Positions 28,791 to 57,886 of a stretch of DNA of 64,000 nt are shown in pieces. This DNA comes from Dehalococcoidia bacterium (GTDB taxonomy: Bacteria > Chloroflexota > Dehalococcoidia > UBA2979): positions 1,879,538 through 1,943,537 of the forward strand of contig CBDBPS010000002.1 of assembly GCA_965208885.1 (NCBI GenBank), in the 5' to 3' direction. Under the pieces are notes generated by a model. It did not search any database, was not told the origin of the DNA, and was given only the letters and a program-made list of their open reading frames with translations. The position numbers and the translations under genes are program-made. Within the stretch, counting starts at the first letter, position 1; each line of letters begins with the position of its first letter.

Positions 28791-29108
28791 GTGGTCAGTC
28801 CGGTCGGCAACCCCCCCGGCTGTAAAGGTGGCGCGCGCGTGGCCGTTCAGGACCTCGCCGTCGTACGCGGACGCGATTCACTCGTGCACTCGCGGACGCA
28901 TCTCATTAACCACGTGCGCGACGACGTCAGGCGCGGGCCGCCGCGCTGCCGTTGTCGACTTCGCCGCATGCGGGGAACGAGAGCGCTCCGAGTCTGTCTG
29001 AGATAGATGCGCGTTCGACTCCTGCCATGAACCCCGGTCCGTGCCGACGGGAATAGGACAGGTTAGGTGAGCCCATCAACACGCGTTTCTGGAGGCGTCC
29101 GTCGGCGG

Positions 29109-32100: not shown

Positions 32101-35021
32101 CGACCGGCACCGCTTCGGACAGCGACCTGATGGGCGGCGGGAGCGTCACGTTCGAGGCAGGCGAGACGCGCAAGACTATCACGGTAGAGGCGCTGCACGA
32201 CGACCTCATCGAAGGCAACGAGACCGCCATGCTTGCGTTCGGGGATTTGCCGGACGGCCTCACCGCGAGTGCGACCGCCACGGCCACCGTGACGGTGACC
32301 GACACGGACCGGGCGCAGATCGACTTCCGCGTCGGGGTGTCGCAGGTCTCCGAGGGGGGCGAGACCCGGCTCACCTTCACGATCACCAACGGCGTCACCT
32401 TCGAGCGGGACCAGCCCATCGACCTGACCATCGGCGGGACGGCCACGCCGGGAGACGACTTCACGCTCGTCGATGCCGCGAGCAACAACCTGTCCGCGCC
32501 CTATGCTCTCACCTTCCCGGCCGGGGCGAGCGCCATCGGCATGACGTTCCGCGCGGTCGATGACACGGACATCGAACCTGCAGCCGAAACGGTCATCATG
32601 AGCGCCCGGCTGGCACTTACCAACACCCTTCTGGGTACGCGCACGGTCGCGATTCCACCGAGCGACGTGCCCGACATCCCGGGCGTCGCGATGTTCGTCG
32701 GTGGCGGGAGCATGGTCACCGAGGGAGAGGACGCACCCTTCATCCTACTGCGCACCACGGCGACGAACCTGCCGGTCTCGGAGCCGCTGACAGTGTCCGT
32801 GGAGGTCACTGCGACGGGCTCGACGCTCAGCGGTGCGACGCCCACCAGTGCGACATTCGACGCGAACAGCTATCTCGCAACCGTGTGGCTCACCACCCTC
32901 GACGACCAGATCGTGGAACCGCCGGGGAGCGTAACCGTCCTCGTGCTCGGCAGCACCAGCAACCCGCCCGTGTACCTCACCGGCGCCAACAACGCATTCA
33001 CCCTGGCCGTTAGCGACAACGACGTGGCGGCGTTCACGGTGTCGGCGAGCGCCGAGGAGGTGGCCGAGGGCGCCACGGTCACGGTCACCATTGCGGCCGA
33101 TGGCGTCACCTTCGCCGAGCCCCAGGCGATCACGCTGATGCTCGGCGGGACGGCGACGCCTGGGGAGGACTTCAGCATCTGGAGTGGCGCCGCGGAGCTG
33201 TCGGACCCGTACACGGTCAAGCTGCCCGCGGGGGCGAGGTCGGCGCTCGTCAGCATCCGCACGAAGCCCGACGGCGAAGACGACCAGGGTGAGACGGTCG
33301 AACTCACAGCCAGCCACGATGGGAACGCCATCGGCGCTGTCACGGTCACGATCACCGCCCCCGCGCCGCCGCCCGTCGTCCTGGGCAGCTTCGGAGGTGG
33401 CGGCGGCCCCTCCGGCCCGACGCCCAGCGATGTTGAGTTCGAGTGGAACGTCGAGCGCGACATCGAGGAGCTGGACAGCGGTCACAACGCCCCGACTGGC
33501 GCCTGGTCCGACGGCGTGCGGGTCTGGCTGTTGCAGAACGGCAGCGGCGCCGACGACGCCGTCTACGCCTACGACCTCACGACTGGCGAACGTGTCGAGG
33601 ACCGCGAGTTCGAGCTCGACGATACGAACCGCGCCCCGCGCGGCGTCTGGTCGAACGGCGAGACGGTGTGGGTCTCCGACAGCGGCCAGAACCGCCTCTT
33701 CGCCTACGACCTCGAGAGCGGTGAACGCGTTCCCGAACTCGACCTGGTACTCGCTGCACGCAACCGCGACGCGCGCGGCATCTGGTCCGATGGCAAGACG
33801 ATGTGGGTGCTCGACGGCGGGAAGGACAGCCTCTTCGCCTACGACCTCGCCGGCGGCGACCTCATCGCCGAGTACGCCCTGGACGGCGCCAACAGCGACC
33901 CTCATGGCCTCTGGTCCGACGGTGTCAGCGTTTGGATCTCCGACCACACCGCCAAGCGCCTCTTCGCCTACAGTGTGCCGTCGCTGCCTGAGTCAGAGCC
34001 TCCCAAGGAGCCGCCCGCCCTCGAGCGCGTCGTCGCCGAGGAGTTCGAGGAGCCGGGCCGCGTCGGCAACAACAGCCCTCGAGGCATCTGGTCGGACGGC
34101 GAGGTCATGTATGTCGTCGACGCGCTCGACGGCCGCGTCTACACGTACAACATGCCCGATGCCATCGAAGTGCGCCTCGCCTCGCTCGCGCTCTCAGGCG
34201 TCGACATCGGCGAGTTCGACCCCGGCGTGAGGGAGTACGACGGCTCGGCGGACACAGGCGTGAGCGAGACGACGATCGAGGCGGAGGCGATGCAGCGCCT
34301 CGCCGACATCGACATCGACCCGCCCGATGCCGACGAGGGGGCGGATGGCCACCAGGTCACGCTCGAGGGCGTCGCCGAGATCACCGTGACCGTGACCTCG
34401 GCGGACGGCGCGCGGAAGCGAGAGTACCGCGTGCGGCTCGGCCAGGAGGAAGCGACCGGGACCGCCGCGGAGTGCCTGCGGGGCGCCGTGGCGGTGGGCT
34501 TCAGCATCCTCGTCTACCAGGGGGGGAGCGTCGGCGACCTGCTCGGCTGCGCGGAGAGCCGCCACGTCAGGGCCCTGTACGCCCTGCACGAGGGCGAGTA
34601 CCTCTCCCACATCCTCGGGGCGCCAGACTTCGTGAACGCCGCCTTCGGGGAGCTGTACCGCGACGGTGTTCCCGCGCTCACCGCGCTGGTCGCCCGCAGC
34701 GTCGGGCCGGCCACGCCGGACCCGGCCGCCGGCGGCGGCGCTGACGGCACAGCGTGGCCGGTCTGCCTGCGCGGCGAGATCGTCGAGGGCTTCAGCCTCG
34801 CGCTGTACGAGGGCGGCAGCGTCGACGCACTCGCAGCCTGTGCGCAGAGCCTGGGCGTCACGGCCGTCTACACCCTGGCCGATGGCGAGTACGTCTCCTA
34901 CATCCTCGGAGCCCCGGAGTTCGTGAACGCGGGCTTCGCCGAGCTGTTCGCCGGTGGTGTTCCGCCCATCACTCCATTGGTCGCCAGAAGCGAAACGCCT
35001 CCCGCGGGTGGACTACGATGA
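29109..35021 (+). CDS. Giant secreted protein with cadherin-like repeats, a possible arylsulfotransferase (ASST)-like beta-propeller, several Calx-beta domains and the conserved C-terminal module.
   Basis: The ATG at 29109 is preceded by GGAGG. The signal peptide reads MAPLGAALLLIAAGLTPAPGAFAQT. A cadherin repeat reads DVTELITT...DEDEG. The propeller region at ~30390-31560 carries ILPNGHLLLYDNGT, VLENGDYLLLAYNS and VLDNGDWLVSWG motifs. Calx-beta units read VAFEEAAYSVGEGSARSVAL...VTVTDTD. The C-terminal module begins SFGGGGGPSGPTPSDVEFEW. Confidence 0.85.
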   Translation: MAPLGAALLLIAAGLTPAPGAFAQTTAAPVITSEGPFTVDEGETAIATLTATDADTAPGDLTWSRTGGADSDKFSLTAAGVLTFAAAGDYEDPDDADGDRSYEVTVQVSDRDNTDTANLVVILANVTELITTIAGPTTVSFAENGAGRVATFTASTDEDRDGIEWILAGTDREHFTIDSPAGALRFHIDPVSPNIFPKLPDFEDPNDGGTDNVYSITLLARVGSAISSSHAVTVTVTDEDEGGSLSFSSKRPRQGVELTATLSDPDGVSAGTVTWQWERSTGRDSWAVVAGAASGSYTPVAADTNAFLRVTATYDDEHGEDHGVAGTPPNVVLGPLLTSVTVTTNNAASNTAHALRPTFDAEVLHYGIGCDESDTMALTLSAPSGSRLAVDGEQVAPGTDVELGVTETTSVQVTLSGGDGAETTYVIHCMPQQFFEWQIIKHAGTSGVLEDLIAFGHPGYISFTDNNGVPRYLTPTLDDLRPPRFFKIGVFRVGGDGAFRYAYRRPTETRSSAFTVLDAQFKTHAEGIQTRPPLTHTDSHDFRVLENGDYLLLAYNSAIRYLGHLTFLDPMRDPSVKVYDSAIQIVTPRGQAKFTWNSWDHMAIEDCVQHRFPIQHPDTSSRNLEHPGYAHVNSAQAVDDLIVASFRGCSKVLGIDVTTGEVAWRIGLSNLSEDDWAGRDIGPAPMGIVNDPEGQFCGQHAAQILPNGHLLLYDNGTRCVMNPWTNEPLGRDFDTFSRAVEYALDHENNEVVFVRDHSLRGERSAFAWSSGDVEVLDNGDWLVSWGRTRSTDPLLTDNETVTQVDPATGVEKFAIRFVTADSANAPRIIASAVPPEALAPQPGSLTAHLPASSHSSVFHGGATDSPQVVVAFSRPVVDFDETSPSFNVTGATVASVSAHVVAGEPSNAYLVTLTPDGDGAISFSLVAGHACAAGGICTADGATLSAAPATFTIGPAPSVAFEEAAYSVGEGSARSVALRLSAAHRGARGVTVPVLLHTTGTASDSDLMGGGSVTFEAGETRKTITVEALHDDLIEGNETAMLAFGDLPDGLTASATATATVTVTDTDRAQIDFRVGVSQVSEGGETRLTFTITNGVTFERDQPIDLTIGGTATPGDDFTLVDAASNNLSAPYALTFPAGASAIGMTFRAVDDTDIEPAAETVIMSARLALTNTLLGTRTVAIPPSDVPDIPGVAMFVGGGSMVTEGEDAPFILLRTTATNLPVSEPLTVSVEVTATGSTLSGATPTSATFDANSYLATVWLTTLDDQIVEPPGSVTVLVLGSTSNPPVYLTGANNAFTLAVSDNDVAAFTVSASAEEVAEGATVTVTIAADGVTFAEPQAITLMLGGTATPGEDFSIWSGAAELSDPYTVKLPAGARSALVSIRTKPDGEDDQGETVELTASHDGNAIGAVTVTITAPAPPPVVLGSFGGGGGPSGPTPSDVEFEWNVERDIEELDSGHNAPTGAWSDGVRVWLLQNGSGADDAVYAYDLTTGERVEDREFELDDTNRAPRGVWSNGETVWVSDSGQNRLFAYDLESGERVPELDLVLAARNRDARGIWSDGKTMWVLDGGKDSLFAYDLAGGDLIAEYALDGANSDPHGLWSDGVSVWISDHTAKRLFAYSVPSLPESEPPKEPPALERVVAEEFEEPGRVGNNSPRGIWSDGEVMYVVDALDGRVYTYNMPDAIEVRLASLALSGVDIGEFDPGVREYDGSADTGVSETTIEAEAMQRLADIDIDPPDADEGADGHQVTLEGVAEITVTVTSADGARKREYRVRLGQEEATGTAAECLRGAVAVGFSILVYQGGSVGDLLGCAESRHVRALYALHEGEYLSHILGAPDFVNAAFGELYRDGVPALTALVARSVGPATPDPAAGGGADGTAWPVCLRGEIVEGFSLALYEGGSVDALAACAQSLGVTAVYTLADGEYVSYILGAPEFVNAGFAELFAGGVPPITPLVARSETPPAGGLR
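30390..31560 (+). other. Possible ASST-like (arylsulfate sulfotransferase family) beta-propeller domain.
   Basis: Repeated L.NG.LL/LL.YDNG-type strands and overall spacing recall ASST-family propellers. This is an eyeball assignment only. Confidence 0.3.
33375..35021 (+). repeat. Copy 4 of 4 of the conserved 3' cassette (C-terminal module).
   Basis: GSFGGGGGPSGPTPSDVEFEWNVERDIEELD followed by blades, a cadherin-like domain and 2x CLRG. Confidence 0.8.
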
Positions 35022-35343: not shown

Positions 35344-36500
35344 GTGAAGCAGGCTCCGGGGGTAGAACATGCGGTCGAGCGCGAGAAGATCGCGGAACGG
35401 TCGACGCGCGGCAAGGCGGAGCGCGCCCGCAACTGCAAACTCGCGCAGGGCACAGGCGCCGGTCGCTACGGGTACATCTACGAACCCGAAACGGGGCAGC
35501 GCGTGCTCAACCCCCGACAGGCGGCAGTCGTCCGCCGCATCTTCGAGGAGTGGGTCTCAGGTAAGGCTGTGAATCGCATCACCACCGACCTGAACATCGA
35601 CGGCATCCCGACGTTGACTGGCAAGCAGTGGTACCCGGTGACGGTCCGCCGGATCCTGCGCAACGAGACCTACACCGGCCGCACGGTCTACCGGCGCACC
35701 AGGGTGGAGATGGTTCGGCAGTCCGGCGCTCGCCGCAGGAAGCGGTGCGTGGTCGAGCAGGATCCGAGCGAGCACATCGTGATCGAGGGGGCGTCGCCGC
35801 AGATCATTTCCCCCGAGTCGTACGCGCTCGCTCAGTCGCGGTTCGAGGACCCCGAGCGCCGTAGCGCACGGGCGCCGTCGCGGACGTATCCGCTGCGTGG
35901 GCGGCTGCGCTGCCGAGATTGCGGTGCGGGCATGGTCGGTCAGCCGGTGCAGCACGGGCGCTACTTCTACTACCGCTGCAATCGCCTCTACCTGTCCAAC
36001 GCGGAGAAGCGCTGCTCAGGTCGGCAGGTCCGTAAGGAAACCCTTGAGGATGCCGTCCGCAGCACCCTCGAAGACGTCCGGAACTCGCCATCGGCATGGC
36101 CGAGCAGCTGCGCGAGGGGACGGATCACGCCGCCCGGCTGGACTAAGCTCGCGCGCGAGCTCAGCCACATCGACGACAGCCAGGACCGCCTCGTCGACCT
36201 CTGCACGGACGGCGAGGTCACCAAGGACGCCTCCCAGCAGAAGCGGGAACGGCTCACAAGGCGCAGGGCCTCGCTTGAGCGCGAGCAGGCTCAGCTCCGC
36301 TCAGAGTGCGAGCCCGGCCCCGATCCCGAGATGCTGCGGGAGGTGCTGGCGTTCGTCCGCGAGTGGGTGACGAAGGCCGAAGGCGACGACCTCGAGTTGC
36401 TGCTTTCAGGCGCTGAACGTGCGCGTGGACGTCTCTCCAGAGGAGGCCGATGTGCTCGTCGAGGTCCCGATGATGGAGGCGCTCGAGGGGGCAGATTTTG
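35344..36500 (+). pseudogene. Large serine recombinase lacking its N-terminal resolvase catalytic domain. Only the recombinase domain, zinc ribbon and coiled coil remain.
   Basis: YGYIYEPETGQRVLNPRQAAVVRRIFEEWVSGKAVNRITTDLNIDGIPTLTGKQWYPVTVRRILRNETYTGR is the recombinase domain. CRDCGAGM...YYRCNRL is the zinc ribbon. The in-frame TGA sits immediately upstream of the GTG at 35344, so no catalytic Ser domain is present. The 3' end reads through into the small conserved ORF. Confidence 0.7.
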
Positions 36501-36522
36501 TCACCACTGCACGAACATCGGT

Positions 36523-36582
36523 ATGAAGCTCCGGTCGTGCGAAAAAGGGTGCGCCAGGCTGTATCTGGCGCTCTCGTTCTGA
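36523..36582 (+). CDS. Conserved 19-codon small ORF, copy 1 (MKLRSCEKGCARLYLALSF). It is part of an ~88-nt repeated element that starts near 36495.
   Basis: Three copies, at 36523, 44177 and 57827, share a TTTcTCACCAC-N15-ATG leader and 19 codons. Differences between copies are mostly synonymous or conservative. Confidence 0.5.
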   Translation: MKLRSCEKGCARLYLALSF

Positions 36583-36601
36583 TGCCCGGCTGGCCTCTCC
36601 T

Positions 36602-37180
36602 CTATCGCGGTGCAACTCGCTTGCGCTTCCGCGCCGCGTTCTGTCTCGCCACCCCGGTGACGTTCAAACGGTACCGCGCCATGGTCTCACTGACTCCGTG
36701 ACGCTTTGCGATATCGCTTGCGGTCGCCCCTCGACGGATCTCCGCAAGGAGTAGCGGTCGAGGAAGGAGAAGGCACCCAGACAACCAGGCTGCCTCCTCC
36801 TCCTGAACAGGATCACAAGAGAGGAAGGTGACATCGCCGAGCGTCTCGATTCGGCTCAGGTCGTGGTCGAGCAGGATGTGCCCGAGTTCGTGCGCAAGGT
36901 CACTCGCCCGGCGGGGGGGCACAGACAGGGGATTGAACACGATCACTACGCGATCGTCTGAAGGACGGAACGTGCAGGCTGAGAACGCATCGGGCTGTAG
37001 CTCATCGAGGGCAACGAATCGGCTGCGCGGGATCAAGTCCTCTCCCGATCGGACCTCGACACCGAGGAGTTCCGCTAGGGCCTCGGGCGTGACCGGGTCA
37101 GCAGCCGCCAACCCGAGGTCCACCCTCACGCTCTTCGCGATCCTCTCCGCTTCTGACTTGAACCCCCTACGAAGCGCCAT
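36602..37180 (-). CDS. ImmA/IrrE-family Zn metallopeptidase (CapP-like).
   Basis: It carries the HEXXH motif AHELGHILLDH. It lies downstream of, and overlaps, an XRE HTH gene, as ImmR/ImmA and CapH/CapP pairs do. Confidence 0.75.
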   Translation of the reverse strand: MALRRGFKSEAERIAKSVRVDLGLAAADPVTPEALAELLGVEVRSGEDLIPRSRFVALDELQPDAFSACTFRPSDDRVVIVFNPLSVPPRRASDLAHELGHILLDHDLSRIETLGDVTFLSCDPVQEEEAAWLSGCLLLPRPLLLAEIRRGATASDIAKRHGVSETMARYRLNVTGVARQNAARKRKRVAPR

Positions 37181-37673
37181 CCTGTGATTCCCTCAAGAGC
37201 GCCTCGTGCAGGTCGTTCACCAGTTCCCCGAGGGTGTGAGCAGCGTCGGGCCTGAACGTCTTCGCTGCCCTCAGATGCACCGCCGCGACTCTTTCAGGAC
37301 GGGCCAACGCCGCGTAGAGGTCCTTTACGATCCCTGCGATTCGATCAGCCGCATCCGGGGGAAGATTGCGATCCGAGCGAAGGTGCTCCGCGATCACGTC
37401 AGTGGTCACCGCAGCTTTCTCGAGGGGCTCGAAGAACTCGGCGATGTCCGCCCCACACCACTCGACGAGACGCTTGAACTTCGGTAGGTCCGGTACGTGG
37501 CCTTTCTCGACTCGGGCCAGGGTGTTGAACGGAATCCCGACGGTGTCGGCGGCCTCGCGGAGACTCATTCCGCGCCGGTTCCGCTCGGCCGCGACGAGCC
37601 GTCCTAGGTCACCGAGGTCGCGGTTGCCAGCCGCCACACGTCCCCCTGTGCGTAAAGTGGTACGCCGCACCAA
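37167..37673 (-). CDS. XRE-family helix-turn-helix transcriptional regulator (CapH/ImmR-like).
   Basis: The HTH reads RGMSLREAADTVGIPFNTLARVEKG. It is divergent from the Ubl operon. Confidence 0.75.
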   Translation of the reverse strand: MVRRTTLRTGGRVAAGNRDLGDLGRLVAAERNRRGMSLREAADTVGIPFNTLARVEKGHVPDLPKFKRLVEWCGADIAEFFEPLEKAAVTTDVIAEHLRSDRNLPPDAADRIAGIVKDLYAALARPERVAAVHLRAAKTFRPDAAHTLGELVNDLHEALLRESQDGAS

Positions 37674-37713
37674 GCGCAGTTTGACACAACTGGCCGCCGC
37701 GCGCTAGGTTGGT

Positions 37714-37737
37714 TGCTGTACCGATTACGGTACAGCA
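37714..37737. promoter_or_regulatory. Perfect inverted repeat TGCTGTACCG-ATTA-CGGTACAGCA in the divergent intergenic region. Candidate operator for the XRE regulator.
   Basis: It has 10-bp arms and a 4-nt spacer. It sits 30 nt upstream of the Ubl ATG and 40 nt upstream of the XRE start on the other strand. Confidence 0.6.
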
Positions 37738-37767
37738 GTGCGCAAGTGGTTCAGAGGAGGATCCGCG

Positions 37768-38019
37768 ATGCCTGACGACAAGGACAAGATCACGATCATT
37801 GTGAACGGCCGCGAGCGGATCGTCACGTCGGACGAGCTCTCGTTCAGCGAAGTGCTCGCACTCGCCTTCGACCCGGTGCCTTCGGGTCCGAACTGGGAGT
37901 TCACCGTCACCTACCGTAACGGCGCTGGCCGCCCGCCCGATGGTCGGCTCCGCCCCGGCGGTCAGGTCAAGGTCGAGGACGGAACCGTCTTCAATGCCAC
38001 CGCAACTGATAAGTCGTAG
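37768..38019 (+). CDS. Ubiquitin-like beta-grasp protein (multiubiquitin/Bub-type Ubl).
   Basis: The 83-aa protein reads MPDDKDKITIIVNGRERIVTSDELSFSEVLALAF... It has a strong SD (GAGGAGGA), and its stop overlaps the start of the E2/E1 fusion. It does not end in Gly-Gly. Confidence 0.6.
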   Translation: MPDDKDKITIIVNGRERIVTSDELSFSEVLALAFDPVPSGPNWEFTVTYRNGAGRPPDGRLRPGGQVKVEDGTVFNATATDKS

Positions 38020-39166
38020 CCCCGATCTCCAGCGGCTCGCAGACGAGGGCTACGAAATCGAGGTGCGCGGCGGCCACCTCCTGCTGAAGCAAGTTCCGTA
38101 CGTAACCGAGGAGCGTGTCGTCGAGCGCGCCACTCTCATCTCCCCACTCGACCTCGCAGGGGATGTCGCTGCCCGCCCGAGCAGTCATGTCGTGATGTTT
38201 ACTGGGCGGGCACCGTGCAACAGCGACGGGAAGCCTCTAAGCAACATCATTCATTCTGCTGGTCAGTGGGACCTGGGCGGCGGCCTGGTCGCTCGGCACA
38301 AGTTCTCAAGCAAGCCGGCAGCCGGCTACGCGGACTACTACGCGAAGATGTCGACGTACGCGGAAATCCTGTCCGGCTACGCGCAGGCCATCGACCCTGC
38401 AGCGACGGCTCGGACGTTCATTGTGGTCCCCGAGGAGGACACAAACTCGGTGTTCCAGTACGTCGATACAGCGTCGAGCCGGTCCGAAATCGCTGCGATC
38501 ACCGAGAAGCTCACGCTCGCTGCGGTAGCGATCGTTGGGCTCGGGGGCACGGGATCGTACATTCTCGATCTCGTCGCGAAGACGCCGGTCGGCGAGATCC
38601 ACCTCTTCGACGGCGACGTCTTTGGCCAGCACAACGCCTTCCGGGCTCCCGGCGCGCCATCGGTCAACGTACTCAGGGCACGACCCAGGAAGTCCGACTA
38701 CCTCCGCAGCATCTATTCCAACATGCACCGCAACATCATCAGTCACGGCTACCTCGATCAGGGCACAACCGACATTCTGTCATCCATGGACTTCGCGTTC
38801 GTGGCCGTGGATGACGCCGATGCCAGGAGGCTGGCGGTCGAGACGCTGCTGGGCGCCGGCGTACGGTTCGTCGATGTGGGGATGGGTGTTAGCGAGGTTG
38901 ACGGGGCGTTGCTCGGGCAGTTGCGAGTCACGTCTGCGACGCCGGACGACCGCGATCACGTTCTCTCGACGATCCCACTCATGCCCCCACCCGGGGATGA
39001 CGACTATTCGCAGAACATCCAGATCGCGGACCTCAACGCGCTGAACGCCGCCCTCGCCGTCCTTAAGTGGAAGAAGCTCATGGGGTTCTACCTGGATCTG
39101 GGACAGGAGCACTCCAGCTGGTACCAGATTGACGGCAACCACCTGGTCAATGAAGCGCGAGCATGA
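37994..39166 (+). CDS. E2-like (Prok-E2) domain fused to an E1/ThiF adenylyltransferase domain.
   Basis: The N-terminal ~130 aa contain HVVMFTGRAPCNSDGKPL, a candidate catalytic Cys. The ThiF Rossmann region reads VAIVGLGGTGSYILDLVAKTPVGEIHLFDGDVFGQHNAFR. A later conserved Asp-rich region reads FVAVDDADARRL. Confidence 0.7.
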   Translation: MPPQLISRSPDLQRLADEGYEIEVRGGHLLLKQVPYVTEERVVERATLISPLDLAGDVAARPSSHVVMFTGRAPCNSDGKPLSNIIHSAGQWDLGGGLVARHKFSSKPAAGYADYYAKMSTYAEILSGYAQAIDPAATARTFIVVPEEDTNSVFQYVDTASSRSEIAAITEKLTLAAVAIVGLGGTGSYILDLVAKTPVGEIHLFDGDVFGQHNAFRAPGAPSVNVLRARPRKSDYLRSIYSNMHRNIISHGYLDQGTTDILSSMDFAFVAVDDADARRLAVETLLGAGVRFVDVGMGVSEVDGALLGQLRVTSATPDDRDHVLSTIPLMPPPGDDDYSQNIQIADLNALNAALAVLKWKKLMGFYLDLGQEHSSWYQIDGNHLVNEARA

Positions 39167-39528
39167 GCCGTAGAGCGGCCCTCGATCACGAGTTCGTCCA
39201 TCACATCCCAGAGCATCTTGCCGATGGGGTGCTGTACGTCTCTGTCGCCTTCGCGACGGCCCTGCACAGGTGTTGCTGCGGATGCGGCAACGAGGTCGTG
39301 ACCCCGCTCAGCTCACACGATTGGAGCCTGACCTTTGACGGCGAGTCGATCTCTCTCTGCCCGTCGATAGGCAACTCGAGCTTCGAGTGCCAGTCGCACT
39401 ACTACATCCGGCGCAACAAAGTCATCTGGCTGCGCTCCTTCGCGGAGACGGAGTCTGAGCGACGCCTGCCTCTCTGGCGGCGGATCGTGCCGAGGTGGCT
39501 GAAGGTGCCGAGAGCGGGTCGAAGGTGA
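39163..39528 (+). CDS. Small Cys-rich (probable Zn-binding) protein, translationally coupled to the E2/E1 gene.
   Basis: An ATGA overlap joins it to the upstream gene. The Cys cluster reads HRCCCGCGNE...LCPS...ECQSHYY. There is no JAMM HxH motif. Confidence 0.5.
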   Translation: MSRRAALDHEFVHHIPEHLADGVLYVSVAFATALHRCCCGCGNEVVTPLSSHDWSLTFDGESISLCPSIGNSSFECQSHYYIRRNKVIWLRSFAETESERRLPLWRRIVPRWLKVPRAGRR

Positions 39529-39612
39529 CCCGCGCGAAACTCGGAGACACACGTTGAGGGTCGACCAGTGAGGCAACACTAGCCCGGCGGCCCGCAGCTC
39601 AGGGTATGAACC

Positions 39613-40479
39613 ATGGCTGAAAACGCTGAACCGCGACCACCGTTTCCTGCAGACTACGAGTCCTCGCGCCGGCGAGTCATATTGGCGCTCGTCGCGTACC
39701 GCTACAACGACTTCGCAAGGCTGCACCAGATGCTCACTTGGTGTGATCCGCGAGTCCCGCGCAACTGGTCAAGCTGGGCTCCCCTCTTCCTCCCGGCTGT
39801 GCTTCTCGTGATCATCGGGTCAGTACTCGATCACGCAGGTGTGAATGATGCGACGGAACTTGCAGCTGCACTCTTCCTGCTTGTCGGGATCCCCTTCTCG
39901 TACGCGTTCCTCGTTGGGTTTCCACTGGCTTGGCTACTGACGAGTGCGCTCAGCCCCCAAGTTAGAGCGTCCCTCGAGCGCCGAGTGCGTGAGTGCTTGG
40001 TGACGTTCTTCGATCTGTACGGCAAATCGATCCCCACCGGAGACGGAAATCGAGGCTCGCTCACCGCATTGGGGGACGACCTAGGGCCCGTGAATCGGCC
40101 ACGCCCGAGCCTATCGGCCTGGAGTAAAGCCTGGGTGCTCCTCATCGGCACCTCTGCGGTGTTCGTGCGCAGCTGGGTTGGAGACGGGAGCGATGCGGAA
40201 TCGCTTACCGCGTTCGTTGAGGCATCGTCCTCGTCCTGGAGCATTCCTGCGCTCCTGATTGGGCTCTCGCTCATCGTCACCTCGCGCTTGGCCGAACAGG
40301 CAAACCGCGATCTCTATGAGGCTGAACTGCAACCCCCACTGAAGGAGCTGTCCGCAGAGTTCGGGAATGTGGCCGACTTGGCTCGATACCCCGGTTCTCT
40401 TGTGACCGACGTTGTGGGTGTGGCGGGGGTGGCCTTGGTCACAGCGGCGGTCGTGGCACTCGCCGCGAACCTAACGTAG
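39613..40479 (+). CDS. Predicted integral membrane protein (4-5 TM helices), last gene of the Ubl cluster.
   Basis: Hydrophobic segments include WAPLFLPAVLLVIIGSVL, AAALFLLVGIPFSYAFLVGFPLAWLLTSAL, WVLLIGTSAVFV and VGVAGVALVTAAVVALAANL. An SD sits before the ATG. Confidence 0.55.
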   Translation: MAENAEPRPPFPADYESSRRRVILALVAYRYNDFARLHQMLTWCDPRVPRNWSSWAPLFLPAVLLVIIGSVLDHAGVNDATELAAALFLLVGIPFSYAFLVGFPLAWLLTSALSPQVRASLERRVRECLVTFFDLYGKSIPTGDGNRGSLTALGDDLGPVNRPRPSLSAWSKAWVLLIGTSAVFVRSWVGDGSDAESLTAFVEASSSSWSIPALLIGLSLIVTSRLAEQANRDLYEAELQPPLKELSAEFGNVADLARYPGSLVTDVVGVAGVALVTAAVVALAANLT

Positions 40480-40662: not shown

Positions 40663-40893
40663 GTGCCTGAGCCACAGAACGTGACAGATGCCGAACCTGC
40701 CGAGGTTGGCCGCACGATGGCGAACCAGCTGCTAGCGTGGCGCCCAACAATGAACTCGGAAGATGTATCGAGAGCCATGATGCGTGCTCTTGAGCACTAT
40801 TCCGCACGAACTGAAGGATCGTCTGAGTCAGGACTCCGAAGGATCATCTACCACTTGCAAGATGCCCTGGAACAGCGGCTGAGGTCCATCTAA
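40663..40893 (+). CDS. Hypothetical small protein (76 aa).
   Basis: ORF only. No recognisable motif. Confidence 0.25.
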   Translation: MPEPQNVTDAEPAEVGRTMANQLLAWRPTMNSEDVSRAMMRALEHYSARTEGSSESGLRRIIYHLQDALEQRLRSI

Positions 40894-40902
40894 GGGGCAG
40901 GC

Positions 40903-42111
40903 CTACGGCGCCCCTGACGCTTGCGTGTCGGCGGCCGACGGGAGCGCTGGGATCGCTCGGGACTCTGGGAATTCGATAGCGTAGTTCGGAGTGAACGGCT
41001 GGGTTGTGACTCGGGCCGACTCGATGCGATCAAGCCGGTACGCTCGGTGCTCACGACTCTCCGCCCGTAGCGCGTGGAGAAGGATGTCCCCCGCCCGTGA
41101 CTGCCTCAACGAGTACGGCTCAATCAGCCGATTCCCACCCTGGTACCCAAGATCAACGAGCAAGCGGTTCACAGCTGCAAACCGGACGGGCTCAATGCGG
41201 TTCCCCAACCCCGTCGTCCAGAAGGTCGGTGGCGGTGTCCAGAGATCGTCCTCCGCCGCCAGCGGTAAGGGCTCAGGGGACTCTTCACCGTTGAGCCAGG
41301 CGAAGAGCCGCGGCAGCTCGGACCAGAAGTGGTTGAAGTCCGGGAGGGCTCTCAACTGGTGGTCGAGCATGTTCGCCCACTCGGTTTCGAGCTCGTCGAA
41401 CATCGGGGAAGTCCGGATGCTCTCGACTGAAGGGATGGCGATCCCTTTCGACGAGCACTTCTCGGCCAGGATCTCGCGGACGAGTGCGGCGTATGGCAAG
41501 AAGTCCGGCCGACGGAAGAGGTTGATGATGTCGTAGAGGTCCCGCGGCCTCGACCGCTCGCCCATTGCGCGCAGCTTCTCGGCGAAGACTTCTTCGAAGC
41601 GGTAGCAGCGAACTTGCGCCGGCTCGGGCAGTGCATCGGGATAGTCGTGGCTGATGGACCTCAGGACCGACGGCCGCACCACGACTTCGTCTGTGGTCAG
41701 GTCGAGCTTGATGCTCGCTGGACCGGGCGCGTTGCGCGGCCCGCGATAGTAGAGTCGCCCCTCTGCTGATGCTCCGGACGAACGGCTCCTGCAGATGGGT
41801 GGTCGCACCGCGAAGTCGATGCCGGACTCCTGACTGACACGGTCGAGTACACGCTCGACCGCCGCGAGCACCTCTTCCGGCTCTATCGGCCCCTCTTCAA
41901 GAACCGTGAAGTCGAGGTCCTCGGAGAACCGGTACGTCTCGATGTAGCACTTCTTCAGGCACGTCCCGCCCTTGAAAACCCATGTCCGGCCGAGTAGCGG
42001 GTCGGCCCCGATACCCCAGAGCACCCACCCGAGGGCGTAGTCCTTCTCGACTACGTCCTCGCGGAGACCCCAGGCGCGCACGCGGTCGTCGATATCGGCT
42101 CGCCCGATCAC
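40903..42111 (-). CDS. abiEii: AbiEii/AbiGii-family nucleotidyltransferase toxin (type IV TA / abortive infection) with a ~100-aa C-terminal extension.
   Basis: VFKGGTCLKKCYIETYRFSEDLDF matches the GGTAL...RFSEDLD nucleotidyltransferase signature. The GTG start overlaps the stop of the upstream AbiEi gene (GTGA). Confidence 0.75.
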   Translation of the reverse strand: MIGRADIDDRVRAWGLREDVVEKDYALGWVLWGIGADPLLGRTWVFKGGTCLKKCYIETYRFSEDLDFTVLEEGPIEPEEVLAAVERVLDRVSQESGIDFAVRPPICRSRSSGASAEGRLYYRGPRNAPGPASIKLDLTTDEVVVRPSVLRSISHDYPDALPEPAQVRCYRFEEVFAEKLRAMGERSRPRDLYDIINLFRRPDFLPYAALVREILAEKCSSKGIAIPSVESIRTSPMFDELETEWANMLDHQLRALPDFNHFWSELPRLFAWLNGEESPEPLPLAAEDDLWTPPPTFWTTGLGNRIEPVRFAAVNRLLVDLGYQGGNRLIEPYSLRQSRAGDILLHALRAESREHRAYRLDRIESARVTTQPFTPNYAIEFPESRAIPALPSAADTQASGAP

Positions 42112-42977
42112 GACTGAACCTCGTTACTGGGAGCAAGCCGTGCGCTGTTCACACGGAGATTCCAACGCGAGACGATCCGGCCTTCCCTCGGGCCAGCAGG
42201 ATCGAGCCAACTCAGCCCGCGAGTGATCCGACTGTGACATGCGCCGATGAAGCTAGCGTCCGCAAGCTGCTCTCGCTCCGCCAGGTACCCGAGGCGCTTG
42301 AAGACGGTCCCGCGGCCCAGCCGGTCGCCGTACTGCAGGAGACGTGCTGGATCGGCACCGGCACTCTCGAAGTACGTGGTGAGGACTTCGGAGGCATGCA
42401 GCGCACCTCCCGCCGCACCCGGCACGTCGAGAACATCGATGATGGTGCGGTGTGGGTCGGACACATCGACAGCCACCTGTCGGCGCCAGACACGCCGCGT
42501 GCCGAACAGCGCCTCCCTGGGCACGCTCCGAATGGTGAAGTCCGTACCCTGAACCAACTGTCGAGTAGGCGTGACCTTCTTTCCAGCGACGACGTAGATG
42601 ACGCTGAAGATCTGGTCCGTCAGCCCCCAGTGCTCTGCGGCGCTCCAACCTCCGATGTAACCTGGACTGAACAGGGTTGCGGCCACGATCCATGGATCTT
42701 CTCGCCACTCGCTCGGCTCGGAGGCCTCAAGCGGGACTGCGATGTACCAGCCTGGGCGCACACGCGAGAGCCAGCCGCCAGCAGCGAGCGCCGCGAGCAG
42801 ACGGCGCGTGGGTCCGATCGCCGTACCGAGCACCGACGCTGCCTGAGTGGCGTTGAACGGACCAGGGAACCTCCGATGAAGCACGGCCAGCTGCGCTCGC
42901 CGCCGACGCCCGAGGCCGGCTGCCAAGCTGTCCTCGCGGTACATCGTGACTCGATTGTCTTCTGTGAGACTGGACAC
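42108..42977 (-). CDS. abiEi: AbiEi-family antitoxin / transcriptional regulator.
   Basis: The 289-aa protein lies immediately upstream of, and overlaps, the AbiEii gene. Its length and position are typical of AbiEi. The N-terminal winged-helix-like region reads LHRRFPGPFNATQAASVLGTAIGPTRRLLAALAAGGWL. Confidence 0.65.
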   Translation of the reverse strand: MSSLTEDNRVTMYREDSLAAGLGRRRRAQLAVLHRRFPGPFNATQAASVLGTAIGPTRRLLAALAAGGWLSRVRPGWYIAVPLEASEPSEWREDPWIVAATLFSPGYIGGWSAAEHWGLTDQIFSVIYVVAGKKVTPTRQLVQGTDFTIRSVPREALFGTRRVWRRQVAVDVSDPHRTIIDVLDVPGAAGGALHASEVLTTYFESAGADPARLLQYGDRLGRGTVFKRLGYLAEREQLADASFIGACHSRITRGLSWLDPAGPREGRIVSRWNLRVNSARLAPSNEVQS

Positions 42978-43246
42978 TTTGCCCTCGCAATGTAGGTCAG
43001 TATATCAGAGGACGTGACTTTTCTTCCATAGAGTGAACTGTGGACTTTCAGTATACCGAGGCCCTCCTCCAGAACAGCGACCCGAGATCCCGACGCTCAC
43101 CGCGAACGAGCTCGAATCCGGTAAGGATGCCGCCCACGGCGCTCTTCCGGCTCACCCCAGGAACTCCGGGCCAAGACATCGGCGAGGCTGTGCTGGAATG
43201 TCGGTACTTATTGACATCGTCCGACGTATCAAAGCACTATCGGGCC

Positions 43247-43849
43247 ATGAGCAAAGCGGGCACGGAAGAGATCCTCGACCTCGTGCGAGAGGCCGGGCTG
43301 GTACGTCCGCGCGACCTCGAGTCGGCCGGCGTTCCGGGAGGCTCCCTCGCGCAACTGGCGCAGAGAGGTCTGCTGGAGAGGCTCGGCCGTGGCCTGTATG
43401 CGGTGCCCGGTGCCGCACCAAGTGAGCACCGCTCGCTCGCGGAGGTCTCGAAGCGGACGCCACGAGGGGTAGTCTGCCTGCTCTCGGCAGTGCGCTTTCA
43501 CGGACTCACTACCCAGGCGCCGGCCGAGGTCTGGCTGGCGATCGGGCCAAAGGATCGGGCCCCGAGGGAGCACAGCGTGCACCTGCGGATCGTGCGCGCC
43601 TCGGGCGAGGCGCGCGATGCAGGCGTCGAGACACATGTCGTCGAGGGCGTGCCTGTCCGCGTCTACGGTGCGGCGAAGACCGTGGCGGACTGCTTCAAGT
43701 TCAGGAACCAGATTGGCACCGACATCGCTGTCGAGGCGCTGCGCGACTGCCTCGAACAGCGCCGCTGCACCGCCGACGAACTCTTCGAATACGCTCGCGT
43801 CTGCCGCGTCTCGCGCGTGATGCGCCCCTACTTGGAGGCACTCGCATGA
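43247..43849 (+). CDS. Orphan AbiEi-like antitoxin domain protein with no downstream toxin gene. The ORF is open from 43040.
   Basis: EEILDLVREAGLVRPRDLESAGVPGGSLAQLAQRGLLERLGRGLYA is typical of the AbiEi_4 N-terminal domain. Downstream there is only a short ORF and then small conserved ORF copy 2. Confidence 0.6.
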   Translation: MSKAGTEEILDLVREAGLVRPRDLESAGVPGGSLAQLAQRGLLERLGRGLYAVPGAAPSEHRSLAEVSKRTPRGVVCLLSAVRFHGLTTQAPAEVWLAIGPKDRAPREHSVHLRIVRASGEARDAGVETHVVEGVPVRVYGAAKTVADCFKFRNQIGTDIAVEALRDCLEQRRCTADELFEYARVCRVSRVMRPYLEALA

Positions 43850-44176: not shown

Positions 44177-44236
44177 ATGAAGCTGCGGTCGTGCGAAAGG
44201 GGATGCGCCCGGATCTACGTCGTGCTGTCCTTCTGA
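44177..44236 (+). CDS. Conserved 19-codon small ORF, copy 2 (MKLRSCERGCARIYVVLSF), with a GGGAGGA SD.
   Basis: See copy 1. The element spans ~44149-44236. Confidence 0.5.
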   Translation: MKLRSCERGCARIYVVLSF

Positions 44237-44463: not shown

Positions 44464-45885
44464 CTACATGATCAGGTGGTCGAATTTCTCCTTGAGGAAC
44501 CCGAACGTCTCATCCCTTTTCCGCGCTTCAACCAACTGCCGGAGGTCATCATCGTCCAAGAAAATGATGAATCCTCGGTCATCGCTCGCCGTGTCTCGGA
44601 GACGACTCTGGAGTAGCTCGCGGTTTTCCACGGTCCGGACCGCCAGAATCCCAAATTGTCCTCGGTTCGGTGAGAATCGGCCCGCAAGTTGGTCGACTTC
44701 CGGATTGGCAGGATCGGCGGAGTAGTTCTTGCATTCGATAAACACATGCTGACTCGGGTAGTTGTTCCCCAGCCATCGGAAGAAGCCTTGCTCGGCGATG
44801 TTCGCATAGGAAATGTCGATTCGCTTGCGGCCACTATGCAGTCGTTCCTCGATTCGAGGGAACGAGAGGGCTGGATAAAAAACCGCCGTGAGAAGGGCCT
44901 CCACTGAACGATGATATCGGTCCGAGCATTCCGGGCCGGGCGGGAGCGAAGTCACCGCCTGCAGTAGGGTGTCCCAGTCGGGCGTATCGACGCCGACATA
45001 AGCAGCCACCCCCTCGTGATTCAACGGAGGTGTGATTCGCCCTGCCTTGGACGCCCGATACGTCTCGAGAAGCTCTGGGGTTTCGAGGGTGAAATCTATC
45101 GCTACCTGCTTCCCCTGGCCATACTTCTTGATTAGGTCTGACTTCGTGACGTGCGGCACTTTGCCTACGAGTCGGACTAGTTCTGTGGTTGCCTCAAGCT
45201 CCCGTGCTTGCAACGCCGGGAGAATGAAGTGCCGATAGTACTCACCGACATCGAAGTCCATTCGTCGGCGAACAATCGACTTCGGTACCAATAGGAGTCG
45301 TCTGTTATCGACGATTGGCAGGTCCACGTAGTCCTCGAACCATTCCTCGGCCTGCGGATCCCACATGGGACCTGAGGCGACACCGCTAGTGACCGGGATC
45401 CCATACCATTCGGATGCTTCTTGTGTGTACCGGATGAGGGGTTGGCGGATGACGTTCGTTGCGATATCAGAAACGATGTCGCTCGCGACACCCGGTACCA
45501 TCAGGACAGTGTCCTCTAGATCTTGGAGAAGGCCGCTCTTGGCTGCCTCACTGTCCTTTAGGGCATTCCCCACATCCCGCGCGGACTGGCTCCCGAGTCC
45601 GCGTCCCCTCGCTTGACCCGTCGAGAACCCGAGATGGGTTTCGTTCGGCTCTCGCAACATTCGTAGCAGCCCGACCGCAGTCTCATCATCCCCCTCGTGT
45701 ATCGAGCGAAGAACTCGGCGAAAGAAGTCCTGTATCAGGGCGACGCACTCCTGGCCCCACGGTGTGTTGAAGCGGCGAAGTGCACGGGGATCCACGAAGA
45801 TCCGCACATCGGTGGCTAGATCAACGTCAACAAAATCAACCTCTGGCTGCGTCTTCGCTAGACCAAAGTGAGCAGTGACGCGCAA
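44464..45885 (-). CDS. Hypothetical 473-aa protein with a putative C-terminal PD-(D/E)xK nuclease motif.
   Basis: A TTG start is preceded by GAGGGG. The C-terminal RKRIDISYANIA ... HVFIECKNY fits a D...ExK restriction-endonuclease-like core. No other family is recognised. Confidence 0.45.
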   Translation of the reverse strand: MRVTAHFGLAKTQPEVDFVDVDLATDVRIFVDPRALRRFNTPWGQECVALIQDFFRRVLRSIHEGDDETAVGLLRMLREPNETHLGFSTGQARGRGLGSQSARDVGNALKDSEAAKSGLLQDLEDTVLMVPGVASDIVSDIATNVIRQPLIRYTQEASEWYGIPVTSGVASGPMWDPQAEEWFEDYVDLPIVDNRRLLLVPKSIVRRRMDFDVGEYYRHFILPALQARELEATTELVRLVGKVPHVTKSDLIKKYGQGKQVAIDFTLETPELLETYRASKAGRITPPLNHEGVAAYVGVDTPDWDTLLQAVTSLPPGPECSDRYHRSVEALLTAVFYPALSFPRIEERLHSGRKRIDISYANIAEQGFFRWLGNNYPSQHVFIECKNYSADPANPEVDQLAGRFSPNRGQFGILAVRTVENRELLQSRLRDTASDDRGFIIFLDDDDLRQLVEARKRDETFGFLKEKFDHLIM

Positions 45886-47156: not shown

Positions 47157-48386
47157 ATGACTACCTACACGCCGGCGTCGTCTCTTGGCTGGCTCGATCT
47201 CGATCCAGCGGCAAGTGAGCGAGTGACCACGCTGCTCCGCTCGCTCGACGAGCCCGGAACTCTCGACGTGCTGGGCTTGGGCACGATACGCGATGCGTTC
47301 TCGGCGATGCTCAGCCCCGGCACCTCGACCGTCCAGACCAGGCTCCGGTATTTCATCTTCTTGCCCTGGATACTGGGTCGCGTCGAAGCCCAGGGAGTCC
47401 CTCCAACCGATTTCACCCGCAGACTCCGTGAGGACGAGGCGCGACTGATCGACTGCCTGCGCCACCTGGGGCCAGGACAGGGGGTCATCGGCTACAACGC
47501 CGGCAGAGAACTCAGGCGCATGCCCAGCGAGATCTACTGGGTCGGTTTAGGCTCCTGGGGTCTGAGGCGGCATGACTTGAGCATCGCCGAGTACGGGCAA
47601 CGGGCTGCTGCTATCGGGAGGCTCCGGCCCGAGCGCGACGACGACGGCGAAGCGACTAGGCGGGTCGTATCAACGTGGGCTCCACTCCCTCAACCTCCAG
47701 CTGACTTCCTGCAGAGCGACATCACCTTCGAGCTTCGTGCCGAGGAGGCGCAGGTCCTTATCGACCACATCCGGCGGCACCACACGGGTACGCTACTGGC
47801 CGTCTTGTGCGGTATGCCAGCTGCTGTGAAGGATGCCGACTATCCGTGGGAAGTCCCGACGGGCGGGCTGCCGGATCACCTCGTTGAACTCCTTCACCAC
47901 GCCCGATGCTTCTCCGAGCTGACTCTTGGGCCGCAACTTGTCTACAACGTCCTCCTCGCGCGTAAGGCGAGCGAGGAGCTTGATTGGGAAACCCACGAGC
48001 TCGAAGAGGGACAACTCAGCCAGCTCGAAACCTGGGGCCAGCTGGTTGGAGACCGGCACGAGGAGTTGCAGTCGTGGGTCGAAGACCTCCCTGAGTTCTG
48101 GCACGTCGTAGCAGACCAGGGCGTCAGCGCACAAACCCAGGACTTCGTCGCAACTGTGGTTAGACGCGCCGTCGCCAATCCCCTCGGCTTCGCCGACGAT
48201 TCCGTCGTTCACAAGCGCATCCGCGACCGGGAGCTCAAGCTGAAGTCGAAGCGAGCTCGACTGGCCCACCGGACTGCGCTTGAGAACTGGAGCCAGGCAC
48301 CAGTCGGTGGTCAGTTCGACTATCGGTGGTCAATCACCAAGAGCTACCTCGCAGACATTGCCAAGGCGTTGGAGGAGGGAGCCTGA
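47157..48386 (+). CDS. Hypothetical 409-aa protein, first gene of a three-gene coupled operon.
   Basis: The ATG at 47157 begins MTTYTPASSLGWLDL. The stop overlaps the next ATG (TGATG). No known motif recognised. Confidence 0.5.
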   Translation: MTTYTPASSLGWLDLDPAASERVTTLLRSLDEPGTLDVLGLGTIRDAFSAMLSPGTSTVQTRLRYFIFLPWILGRVEAQGVPPTDFTRRLREDEARLIDCLRHLGPGQGVIGYNAGRELRRMPSEIYWVGLGSWGLRRHDLSIAEYGQRAAAIGRLRPERDDDGEATRRVVSTWAPLPQPPADFLQSDITFELRAEEAQVLIDHIRRHHTGTLLAVLCGMPAAVKDADYPWEVPTGGLPDHLVELLHHARCFSELTLGPQLVYNVLLARKASEELDWETHELEEGQLSQLETWGQLVGDRHEELQSWVEDLPEFWHVVADQGVSAQTQDFVATVVRRAVANPLGFADDSVVHKRIRDRELKLKSKRARLAHRTALENWSQAPVGGQFDYRWSITKSYLADIAKALEEGA

Positions 48387-57826: not shown

Positions 57827-57886
57827 ATGAAGCTGCGGTCGTGCGAAAAGGGGTGCGCCAGATTGTATCTGGTGCTCTCGTTCTGA
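57827..57886 (+). CDS. Conserved 19-codon small ORF, copy 3 (MKLRSCEKGCARLYLVLSF).
   Basis: See copy 1. The element spans ~57799-57886 and lies 60 nt after the Fic stop. Confidence 0.5.
   Translation: MKLRSCEKGCARLYLVLSF

Follow-up and report, generated by a model that had tools for sequence, protein, structure and literature searches.

Bub is the new name for the bacterial operons previously known as 6E/DUF6527, and Type II Bub is the group formerly called 6E.2/DUF6527 (Ye, Gong, Chambers & Corbett, bioRxiv 10.1101/2024.11.21.623953). Type II is defined by three proteins, the ubiquitin-like protein (Ubl) BubA, the E2-E1 fusion BubBD and the DUF6527 protein BubE, and is "typically" without a JAB peptidase. 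The same study found a CapH+CapP pair in 168 of 544 Bub operons (31%); its Table S1 holds about 405 E2+E1-fusion operons, with the CapP/CapH columns filled for many of them. Ubl architectures are treated in a companion preprint, in which the single-domain form (Ubl1) is catalogued (10.1101/2024.11.21.623966). Here we describe a locus of this kind in a 64-kb window, by which we mean the whole stretch of DNA analysed, from contig CBDBPS010000002.1 of a Dehalococcoidia bacterium. Three overlapping genes of the window, accompanied by a divergent pair of regulatory genes, very probably constitute a canonical Type II Bub operon (BubA, BubBD and BubE). For its identity and enzymology taken together we put the probability at about 0.87.

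Composition of the operon

Gene coordinates were taken from open reading frames (ORFs), and the conservation counts given below are drawn from 84 related genomic Bub loci unless another sample is named; for BubBD, 28 database homologues were aligned separately. On the plus strand, bubA (37768-38019) encodes a single beta-grasp Ubl of 83 aa, bubBD (37994-39166) encodes 390 aa in which an E2 domain (DUF6791, residues ~1-145) is fused to an E1 adenylation domain (ThiF), and bubE (39163-39528) encodes 121 aa, a predicted serine protease of the DUF6527 family that has a C4 zinc site and an amphipathic or basic C-terminal tail. A Shine-Dalgarno sequence, GAGGAGG, lies at 37754-37760, 5' of bubA. The overlap between bubA and bubBD is 26 nt and that between bubBD and bubE 4 nt (ATGA); the start of bubBD is set by more than 7,700 homologues, nearly all of them ~390 aa long. 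An earlier examination of this DNA from its letters alone, which we call the sequence-only reading, had proposed one overlap-coupled operon made up of genes for a Ubl, an E2-E1 fusion and a small protein with a Cys cluster, and on this the ORFs and the Pfam domains agree. The arrangement is common to the family. BubA, BubBD and BubE are adjacent in 83 of the 84 loci, with bubA directly 5' of the ligase gene in all 84 and bubE beside that gene in 83.

The sequence-only reading was also right that no JAB gene is present: Pfam and PADLOC detected no JAB/JAMM domain in the five module genes or their neighbours. It went on to suggest that the cassette may be a distinct variant of the known Ubl systems. 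A Ubl, an E2-E1 fusion and a DUF6527 protein, without JAB and with CapH+CapP, is the composition of the named Type II Bub subtype, so the claim of a distinct variant falls; the domain searches led to a subtype of identical composition that had already been catalogued. Both domain assignments find support in Pfam, the Ubl as Multi_ubiq and the E2 as DUF6791 instead of the Prok-E2_B that had been guessed. The precomputed Pfam label of PF20137 already reads "BubE". The PADLOC 2023 models include no Bub models and are hence unable to classify such systems; PADLOC returned no match for BubA, BubE or the membrane ORF downstream. Look-ups by exact sequence turned up no record of the BubBD or of the membrane protein of this window. 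The nearest genomes are metagenome-assembled genomes of Chloroflexota/Dehalococcoidia, and the cassette adds one more example of Type II Bub, in a sponge-associated Chloroflexota-like genome.

The ubiquitin-like protein BubA

BubA matches Pfam Multi_ubiq (1.7e-16) and aligns to the beta-grasp domain that is C-terminal in E. coli ZDHYS365 BubA (PDB 9cd2) at 3.2e-7. It ends in ...FNATATDKS, and PDB 9cd2 in ...TQTDKS. The Ubl does lack a C-terminal Gly-Gly, as noticed earlier, the chain closing on ...ATDKS. Judged by the related proteins, this is a property of the family and no peculiarity of the present locus: all 84 related BubA proteins end in ...FN(V/A)TxTDKS or a close variant, and the pattern ...(T/S)x(K/R/Q)S likewise fits 84/84. 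A C-terminal serine (...FNVTxTDKS) that is kept in Type II BubA across phyla bears on how the E1 and BubE recognise their substrate.

The E2-E1 fusion BubBD

BubBD carries Pfam matches to DUF6791 (6.9e-57; residues 28-177 of the 408-aa ORF) and ThiF (5.4e-11). Over 376 residues it shares 41% identity with the BubBD of E. coli ZDHYS365, an enzyme tested in biochemical work (E=2e-94), and it scores 525 bits on NCBIfam NF004805 (the PRK06153 model), for which the cut-off is 352. An AlphaFold2 (AF2) model of the N-terminal domain (predicted local distance difference test, pLDDT, 89.3; predicted template modelling score, pTM, 0.85) shows a UBC-like E2 fold nearest to BubB. In a model of the full-length protein the best match of the E1 half is Citrobacter BubCD, followed by UBA5, ThiF and MoeB.

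Residues with published or likely roles are strongly conserved. The E2 serine S105 (in HxFSSKP; S106 in E. coli) is present in 84/84 loci, and around it K107 is kept in 83, H65 in 84 and H102 in 74 of the 84. On the E1 side, R217 (QHNAFR) is invariant (84/84) and the crossover-loop tyrosine Y338 is found in 83/84. The sole exception for Y338 is a machine-read E. coli sequence and is probably a reading error; in that sequence the numbering is off by 1-2 residues and a V stands at the Tyr342 position, and our own alignments were used instead.

The sequence-only reading had picked out a different candidate, the cysteine in RAPCNSDGKPL, as the catalytic residue of the E2 domain. This is C75 (window 38216-38218, motif (A/M)PC(D/N)), the only cysteine in BubBD; it sits in the E2 domain and there is none in the E1 domain. 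The published E2 nucleophile is an invariant serine, which corresponds here to S105. With the S106A mutation, E. coli BubBD no longer forms BubA-BubA conjugates, the family has been described as independent of cysteine, and Bub chemistry proceeds via Ser and Tyr oxyesters (10.1101/2024.11.21.623953). C75 was dropped as an established nucleophile because published mutagenesis assigns catalysis to the serine. Of the 84 genomic loci, 83 retain it, as does the E. coli enzyme, and it is replaced by His or Arg in 2 of the 28 database homologues. The portion of the published oxyester mechanism at our disposal does not address a role for C75. The residue could play a catalytic or redox-regulatory part, a secondary point that we weigh jointly with the branch of regulators lacking a GAF domain, discussed below.

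Because the E1 half matches Pfam ThiF, resembles ThiF and MoeB structurally and gives weak matches to the NCBIfam models for ThiF/MoeB, the genes might be read as a ThiS/MoaD-type sulfur carrier with its ThiF/MoeB adenylyltransferase, serving the synthesis of cofactors or thio-modifications and not protein conjugation. We hold this to be highly improbable. The ThiF/MoeB models reach only 18-26 bits against cut-offs of 152-275, in contrast to the 525 bits of the PRK06153 model, and the N-terminal UBC-like domain is nearest to BubB. The Ubl is of the Multi_ubiq family and has TDKS at its end in place of Gly-Gly. The neighbourhood has no sulfurtransferase, thiazole or molybdopterin genes, the partner is the protease BubE, and the E. 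coli homologue makes protein-protein conjugates.

The peptidase BubE

The third gene product belongs to Pfam DUF6527 (PF20137; 7e-24) and is 54% identical to E. coli BubE (E=6e-32). The cysteines of the C4 zinc site (C37, C39, C41 and C76) and the protease dyad (S68 and H79) are each at least 99% conserved in 82 sequences. Citrobacter BubE is a Ser-His protease with a C4 zinc site that cleaves BubA fusions and removes conjugates (10.1101/2024.11.21.623953). On the strength of these matches the Cys-rich protein would be the peptidase of the Bub system. The sequence-only reading had described the cassette as having no peptidase, which is wrong given the identity of the Cys-cluster protein as BubE, with its conserved C4 site and S68/H79.

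BubBD also gives weak PADLOC matches to E1-E2 (Cap2) proteins, which would fit a Cap2 system of the Type II kind in cyclic-oligonucleotide-based antiphage signalling (CBASS) or Pycsar-like operons, or else Bil, in place of Bub. The probability of this is close to negligible. The matches stand at 1e-8 or weaker and are confined to the Rossmann/ThiF stretch, and there is no CD-NTase, cyclase, effector or JAB/Cap3 gene. Bil needs a separate E1 (IAD-AAD-CYS), an E2 and a JAB protein, with catalytic cysteines, whereas here one protein combines E2 with E1, and its E1 part is devoid of Cys. The top structural and sequence matches are BubB, BubCD and BubBD, and it is as Type II Bub that we treat the operon from here on.

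The regulatory genes

Divergently from the operon lie two genes on the minus strand that overlap by 14 nt. The first, capH-like (37167-37637), encodes an XRE-family helix-turn-helix (HTH) repressor of 156 aa from a GTG start; the second, capP-like (36602-37180), encodes a 192-aa zinc metallopeptidase of the M78/ImmA/IrrE family with an HTH-like linker and without a GAF domain. That the operon diverges from an XRE/M78-peptidase pair of the CapH/CapP type, as previously proposed, is confirmed by Pfam and PADLOC matches. For capH the gene itself stands and its start has to be moved. The TTG at 37673 used earlier gives only the longest ORF, whereas gene calls in relatives (151-156 aa) use the GTG.

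The capP-like protein matches Pfam Peptidase_M78 (7.7e-17), with a weak HTH_20 match in the linker, and PADLOC capP (7.6e-11) over profile positions 4-150 of 242 only. H97, E98, H101 and E128 are conserved in all close homologues, whose lengths run from 184 to 201 aa, and stand at positions identical to those in E. coli MS115-1 CapP. The capH-like protein matches Pfam HTH_31 (4.2e-8) and HTH_3 (4.1e-7).

Canonical CapP has 288 aa, of which the GAF domain takes up residues 182-288; that domain contributes three of the five tested residues that bind single-stranded DNA (ssDNA) and half of the ssDNA groove, and it docks the HTH domain of CapH (10.1101/2022.04.27.489752; 10.64898/2026.05.16.725639). 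A cysteine-switch loop is present in about one third of CapP proteins (10.1101/2022.04.27.489752; 10.64898/2026.05.16.725639). The present protein ends at residue 192 and has no C-terminal GAF domain; by their length the members of its clade, all of 182-201 aa, lack it as well. From these features the pair is best called "CapH/CapP-like, GAF-less". A cysteine between H101 and E128, C122, is kept in all 17 close homologues and absent from distant ones; its position differs from that of C113/C114, and it may act as a cysteine switch. Lacking the surface on which CapH docks as well as half of the ssDNA groove, proteins of this kind could sense differently. We raise it as a tentative and rather unlikely possibility that the pair represents a distinct GAF-less CapH/CapP branch with a relocated Cys122, an operator code of its own and possibly another signal or another manner of sensing ssDNA. 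A clade of Bub-linked GAF-less "CapP" proteins raises the question of how such peptidases become activated.

Operator and promoter

The intergenic region contains a perfect 24-bp palindrome, TGCTGTACCG-ATTA-CGGTACAGCA, at 37714-37737, with the core GTACC-N6-GGTAC at 37718-37733; the palindrome ends 30 nt upstream of the bubA ATG. Perfect hairpin palindromes whose arms reach 10 bp or more number five in the window and ~1.6 in shuffles, so the palindrome by itself is only moderately unusual within the 64 kb. The core has one occurrence in the window, where 0.05 are expected. It is found once, at the same site upstream of bubA, in 17 of 18 loci that have a close CapH homologue and in none of 64 loci without that clade; it occurs also in one short contig that ends before capH. 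The related loci all have identical half-sites, and the spacer of 6 bp is free to vary. Since the core tracks the CapH clade (17/18 versus 0/64 loci), the earlier proposal that the palindrome serves as an operator is well supported, and we consider it in all likelihood a genuine operator of the CapH-like repressor.

A putative bubA promoter on the plus strand (37681-37710) consists of a -35 element, TTGACA (37681-37686), an 18-nt spacer and a -10-like TAGGTT (37705-37710). Of 16 unique related loci, 15 have T(T/C)GACA at a distance of 36-41 nt upstream of the operator core, and an A/T-rich -10-like hexamer, here TAGGTT, directly precedes the operator across loci; the -10 assignment follows from this position. 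The operator would thus abut the -10 element and overlap the probable transcription start of bubA, the classic geometry of repression. A second and weaker candidate site, GGTAC-N3-GCAC with everted half-sites, lies at 37659-37670 on the capH side, upstream of the -35 element; GGTAC-N3-G(T/C)AC is seen ~20 nt upstream of the -35 in 10 of the 16 unique related loci. TTGACA-N18-TAGGTT together with GTACC-N6-GGTAC offers a testable layout, backed by a clean presence/absence correlation over 82 loci.

Mobility of the module

A block of 3,026 bp (window 36520-39543) is 97.9% identical to the nearest relative (loci L001/L002), whose BubBD is 99% identical, and the flanks differ on both sides. We take window 36520-39543 to be a self-contained, horizontally mobile five-gene module.

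ImmR/ImmA of ICEBs1 and DdrO/IrrE of Deinococcus are systems in which an XRE repressor is cut by its cognate M78-family metallopeptidase upon DNA damage. The XRE/M78 pair could accordingly be the ImmR/ImmA-type immunity module of a decayed integrative element, with Bub as adjacent cargo: a truncated and frameshifted large serine recombinase lies immediately to the left (35344-36582), the peptidase is short and GAF-less like ImmA, and the region is mobile DNA. This is very unlikely in view of what moves together. A single 3-kb block comprising the pair, the operator and bubA-BD-E moves as a unit into other contexts that have no recombinase, the position upstream of bubA is occupied by this pair and this operator throughout 17 related genomes, and the operator abuts the bubA promoter. 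We thus favour a regulatory pair that belongs to the Bub operon.

The downstream membrane gene

Past bubE, on the same strand, an ORF at 39613-40479 (+) encodes 288 aa with ~5 hydrophobic segments. The gap that separates it from bubE measures 84 nt, not 85 nt as first given. It has no Pfam, NCBIfam or PADLOC match, and a word-indexed search returned no matches at all; an exhaustive HMMER search was needed, which found 13 relatives among 1.84 billion representatives, 8 of them at E <1e-10. The relatives are 30-39% identical over the full length, and the pattern of ~5 segments is kept in the family.

The sequence-only reading had counted this protein as part of the system, and a distinct Bub/Bil-like variant, with the five-segment transmembrane (5-TM) protein as its dedicated effector or target, would account for several observations. 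The ORF follows bubE on the same strand after 84 nt in which no terminator was called, it represents a real gene whose topology is conserved, and BubE tails have been proposed to associate with membranes (10.1101/2024.11.21.623953). We nevertheless find such a variant hardly probable. The conserved block ends 15 nt past the bubE stop and leaves the ORF outside its 3,026 bp, and the 99%-identical relative has a different gene there, on the opposite strand. No homologue of the membrane ORF occurs in any of the 84 Bub loci. Three of its relatives were examined, and none adjoins Bub (0/3): one is in the type IV secretion system region of an integrative and conjugative element (~40 kb from a Bub operon on the same contig), one near DndB/SNF2 and one near CRISPR-Cas/IS21, all in the mobile DNA of genomes of the Chloroflexota type. 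A search for a partner gene conserved across the family found none. In about half of the Bub loci bubE is not followed by any ORF on its own strand, and the position after bubE shows no enrichment in TM proteins. The G+C content at third codon positions (GC3) is lower in the ORF than in the bub genes (0.70 versus 0.79-0.81). The 5-TM gene is real, as had been supposed, but it is an unrelated passenger of mobile DNA and no component of the Bub operon.

Proposed working of the module

Conjugation chemistry has been shown for the E. coli and Citrobacter homologues (10.1101/2024.11.21.623953); for the present proteins we infer it from 41% identity and conserved residues. At rest, CapH-like dimers would sit on GTACC-N6-GGTAC at the TTGACA-N18-TAGGTT promoter and presumably keep bubA-BD-E low, and the weaker upstream site probably lets the repressor regulate its own gene too. 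Stress, which by analogy with canonical CapP may be DNA damage or phage-derived ssDNA, would activate the M78 peptidase, leading to cleavage of the repressor and de-repression of the operon. The E1 domain of BubBD, whose ATP site contains R217, is then expected to adenylate BubA at the carboxylate of its last residue, Ser83 (...TDKS). BubA would first be bound as an oxyester to Tyr338 in the crossover loop, then handed to Ser105 of the E2 domain, a step in which K107 and an invariant His assist, and finally be joined to a target protein's lysine. BubE, the protease with the C4 zinc site and the Ser68/His79 dyad, would strip BubA from targets and so limit the pathway, as has been shown for the Citrobacter homologue.

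Several points tell against this account. Conjugation, oxyester chemistry and BubE proteolysis are all transferred from homologues at 41-54% identity and so are here predictions. C75 is nearly invariant in the E2 domain of a family held to work without catalytic cysteines. The PADLOC capH match is weak (0.006), and in architecture the regulatory pair appears equally close to ImmR/ImmA. Because the GAF domain is missing, a trigger by ssDNA or DNA damage is uncertain, and we give ssDNA an even chance of being the signal. A strict consensus promoter scan called no promoter upstream of bubA, which it missed owing to the weakness of the -10 element. According to the authors who defined Bub, protection of E. 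coli from phage has so far been obtained with no Bub operon (10.1101/2024.11.21.623953), and we found in the literature no newer functional data on Bub than the two preprints of 2024.

Genomic surroundings

The Bub module lies in a defence island. At ~36 kb the G+C content drops from ~0.69, the level of the 36 kb upstream, to ~0.62. A tRNA scan found no tRNA gene in the window to mark an integration site, and an Rfam scan of the window returned no family. Directly upstream of the island is the gene for a secreted repeat protein of 1,984 aa (29067-35021, +), with a signal-like N-terminus, many Ig/cadherin-like repeats and beta-propeller-like WxxDG repeats. It is followed by the decayed large serine recombinase (35344-36582, +), which retains only the Recombinase and Zn_ribbon_recom domains and has lost the N-terminal resolvase catalytic domain. 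Its C-terminal third is frameshifted, the natural ...DFVTTARTSV* end being in another frame, and it marks the left border of the lower-GC island.

To the right of the membrane ORF stands a complete AbiEii/AbiEi pair (40903-42977, -), a toxin-antitoxin system of defence, whose AbiEii has a C-terminal WYL domain and matches PADLOC at 1.6e-127 and which is 84% identical in DNA to a pair in the related locus L004. In between, a 76-aa ORF (40663-40893, +) has a G+C content of 0.563 and a GC3 of 0.60, below those of its neighbours, and no family match; it may be non-coding. Further along come a second, solitary AbiEi-type gene (43040-43849, +), PDC-M36A (44464-45885, -), ZacA/ZacB/ZacC (47157-53487, +; ZacC at 1020 bits), a Schlafen/AlbA_2 protein (54960-56120), SoFic (56493-57764) and an Avs2-like NLR (58145-62359, -). 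An antiphage or stress defence role of Bub is suggested by context, and the defence-island setting fits the contextual argument made for such a role in the Bub paper. The neighbourhood of AbiE, Zac, SoFic and Avs2 adds contextual support to it, although no proof.

The left edge of the mobile Bub block is marked by a repeat of ~100 bp with a 19-codon mini-ORF, which has three copies in the window (36523-36582, 44177-44236 and 57827-57886) and two in L001 (8531-8590 and 19177-19236). From ATG to TGA the mini-ORF of copy 1 reads MKLRSCEKGCARLYLALSF; copy 2 ends in ...LYLVLSF, and copy 3 reads MKLRSCERGCARIYVVLSF. In each of the window's three copies, an upstream frame ending F(V/L)TT...(V/L)* has a stop that overlaps with the ATG of the mini-ORF (ATGA). 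A terminator-like hairpin, GCGCCAG-N7-CTGGCGC with a T-run (36551-36571, -), lies just past the capP stop and within the left end of the 3,026-bp block. Copy 3 differs by changes that are synonymous or conservative in the mini-ORF frame and that break the GCGCCAG...CTGGCGC hairpin, which is present in the other two copies. The repeat is limited to the present genome and its 99% relative, with no instance in 82 other loci, and matches nothing in Rfam. It may represent a repeat at the module border, act as a terminator or encode a small peptide.

Comparison with known systems

The closest described system is the Type II Bub operon of E. coli ZDHYS365. Gene order and domains are the same (a Multi_ubiq Ubl, a DUF6791-ThiF fusion and a DUF6527 protease, without JAB), as are the catalytic Ser, Lys and His, the Arg and the Tyr of BubBD, the C4 and Ser-His set of BubE and the ...TDKS terminus of the Ubl. 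The link with CapH+CapP and with mobile or defence loci is also shared. The two differ in that BubA has one beta-grasp domain here (83 aa) and three in E. coli (222 aa), and in that the regulator peptidase is GAF-less here. The host is of the Chloroflexota/Dehalococcoidia type, a phylum that was not found in the published Table S1 of Bub operons.

Type I Bub, represented by BubAB/BubCD/BubE of Citrobacter sp. RHBSTW-00271 (PDB 9ea4, 9ea5, 9ea8, 9eae and 9eav), has a BubE of the same family and the same cysteine-independent oxyester logic. In Type I the fusions unite the Ubl with the E2 and the E1 with a JAB peptidase, and cleavage exposes a C-terminal Gly. In contrast, the present locus has an E2-E1 fusion, no JAB, and a Ubl that ends in Ser without a precursor extension. 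Bil (BilABCD) and the Cap2/Cap3 proteins of Type II CBASS are likewise bacterial E1/E2 conjugation systems in defence islands, and Cap2 is also an E2-E1 fusion. However, both use catalytic cysteines and a JAB peptidase, and CBASS conjugates a CD-NTase, not a Ubl; these components are absent here.

As to regulation, the CapH/CapP found with CBASS and further defence operons (in E. coli MS115-1 and Thauera sp. K11) is the same divergent pair of an XRE-HTH protein and an M78 peptidase with overlapping genes. It shares the H97/E98/H101/E128 numbering, the HTH-like linker, a Cys in the loop between HExxH and the third ligand, and an operator at the promoter of the regulated operon, which here was recognised from a comparative footprint. 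The peptidase has 192 aa and no GAF domain here versus 288 aa in CapP, the repressor 156 aa versus 107 aa in CapH, and the loop Cys is at position 122 instead of 113/114. Peptidases of the ImmA type are short and GAF-less, as is the capP-like protein. Yet ImmR/ImmA and DdrO/IrrE control a mobile element or a radiation-response regulon, whereas the pair described here travels with a Bub operon, and its operator abuts that operon.

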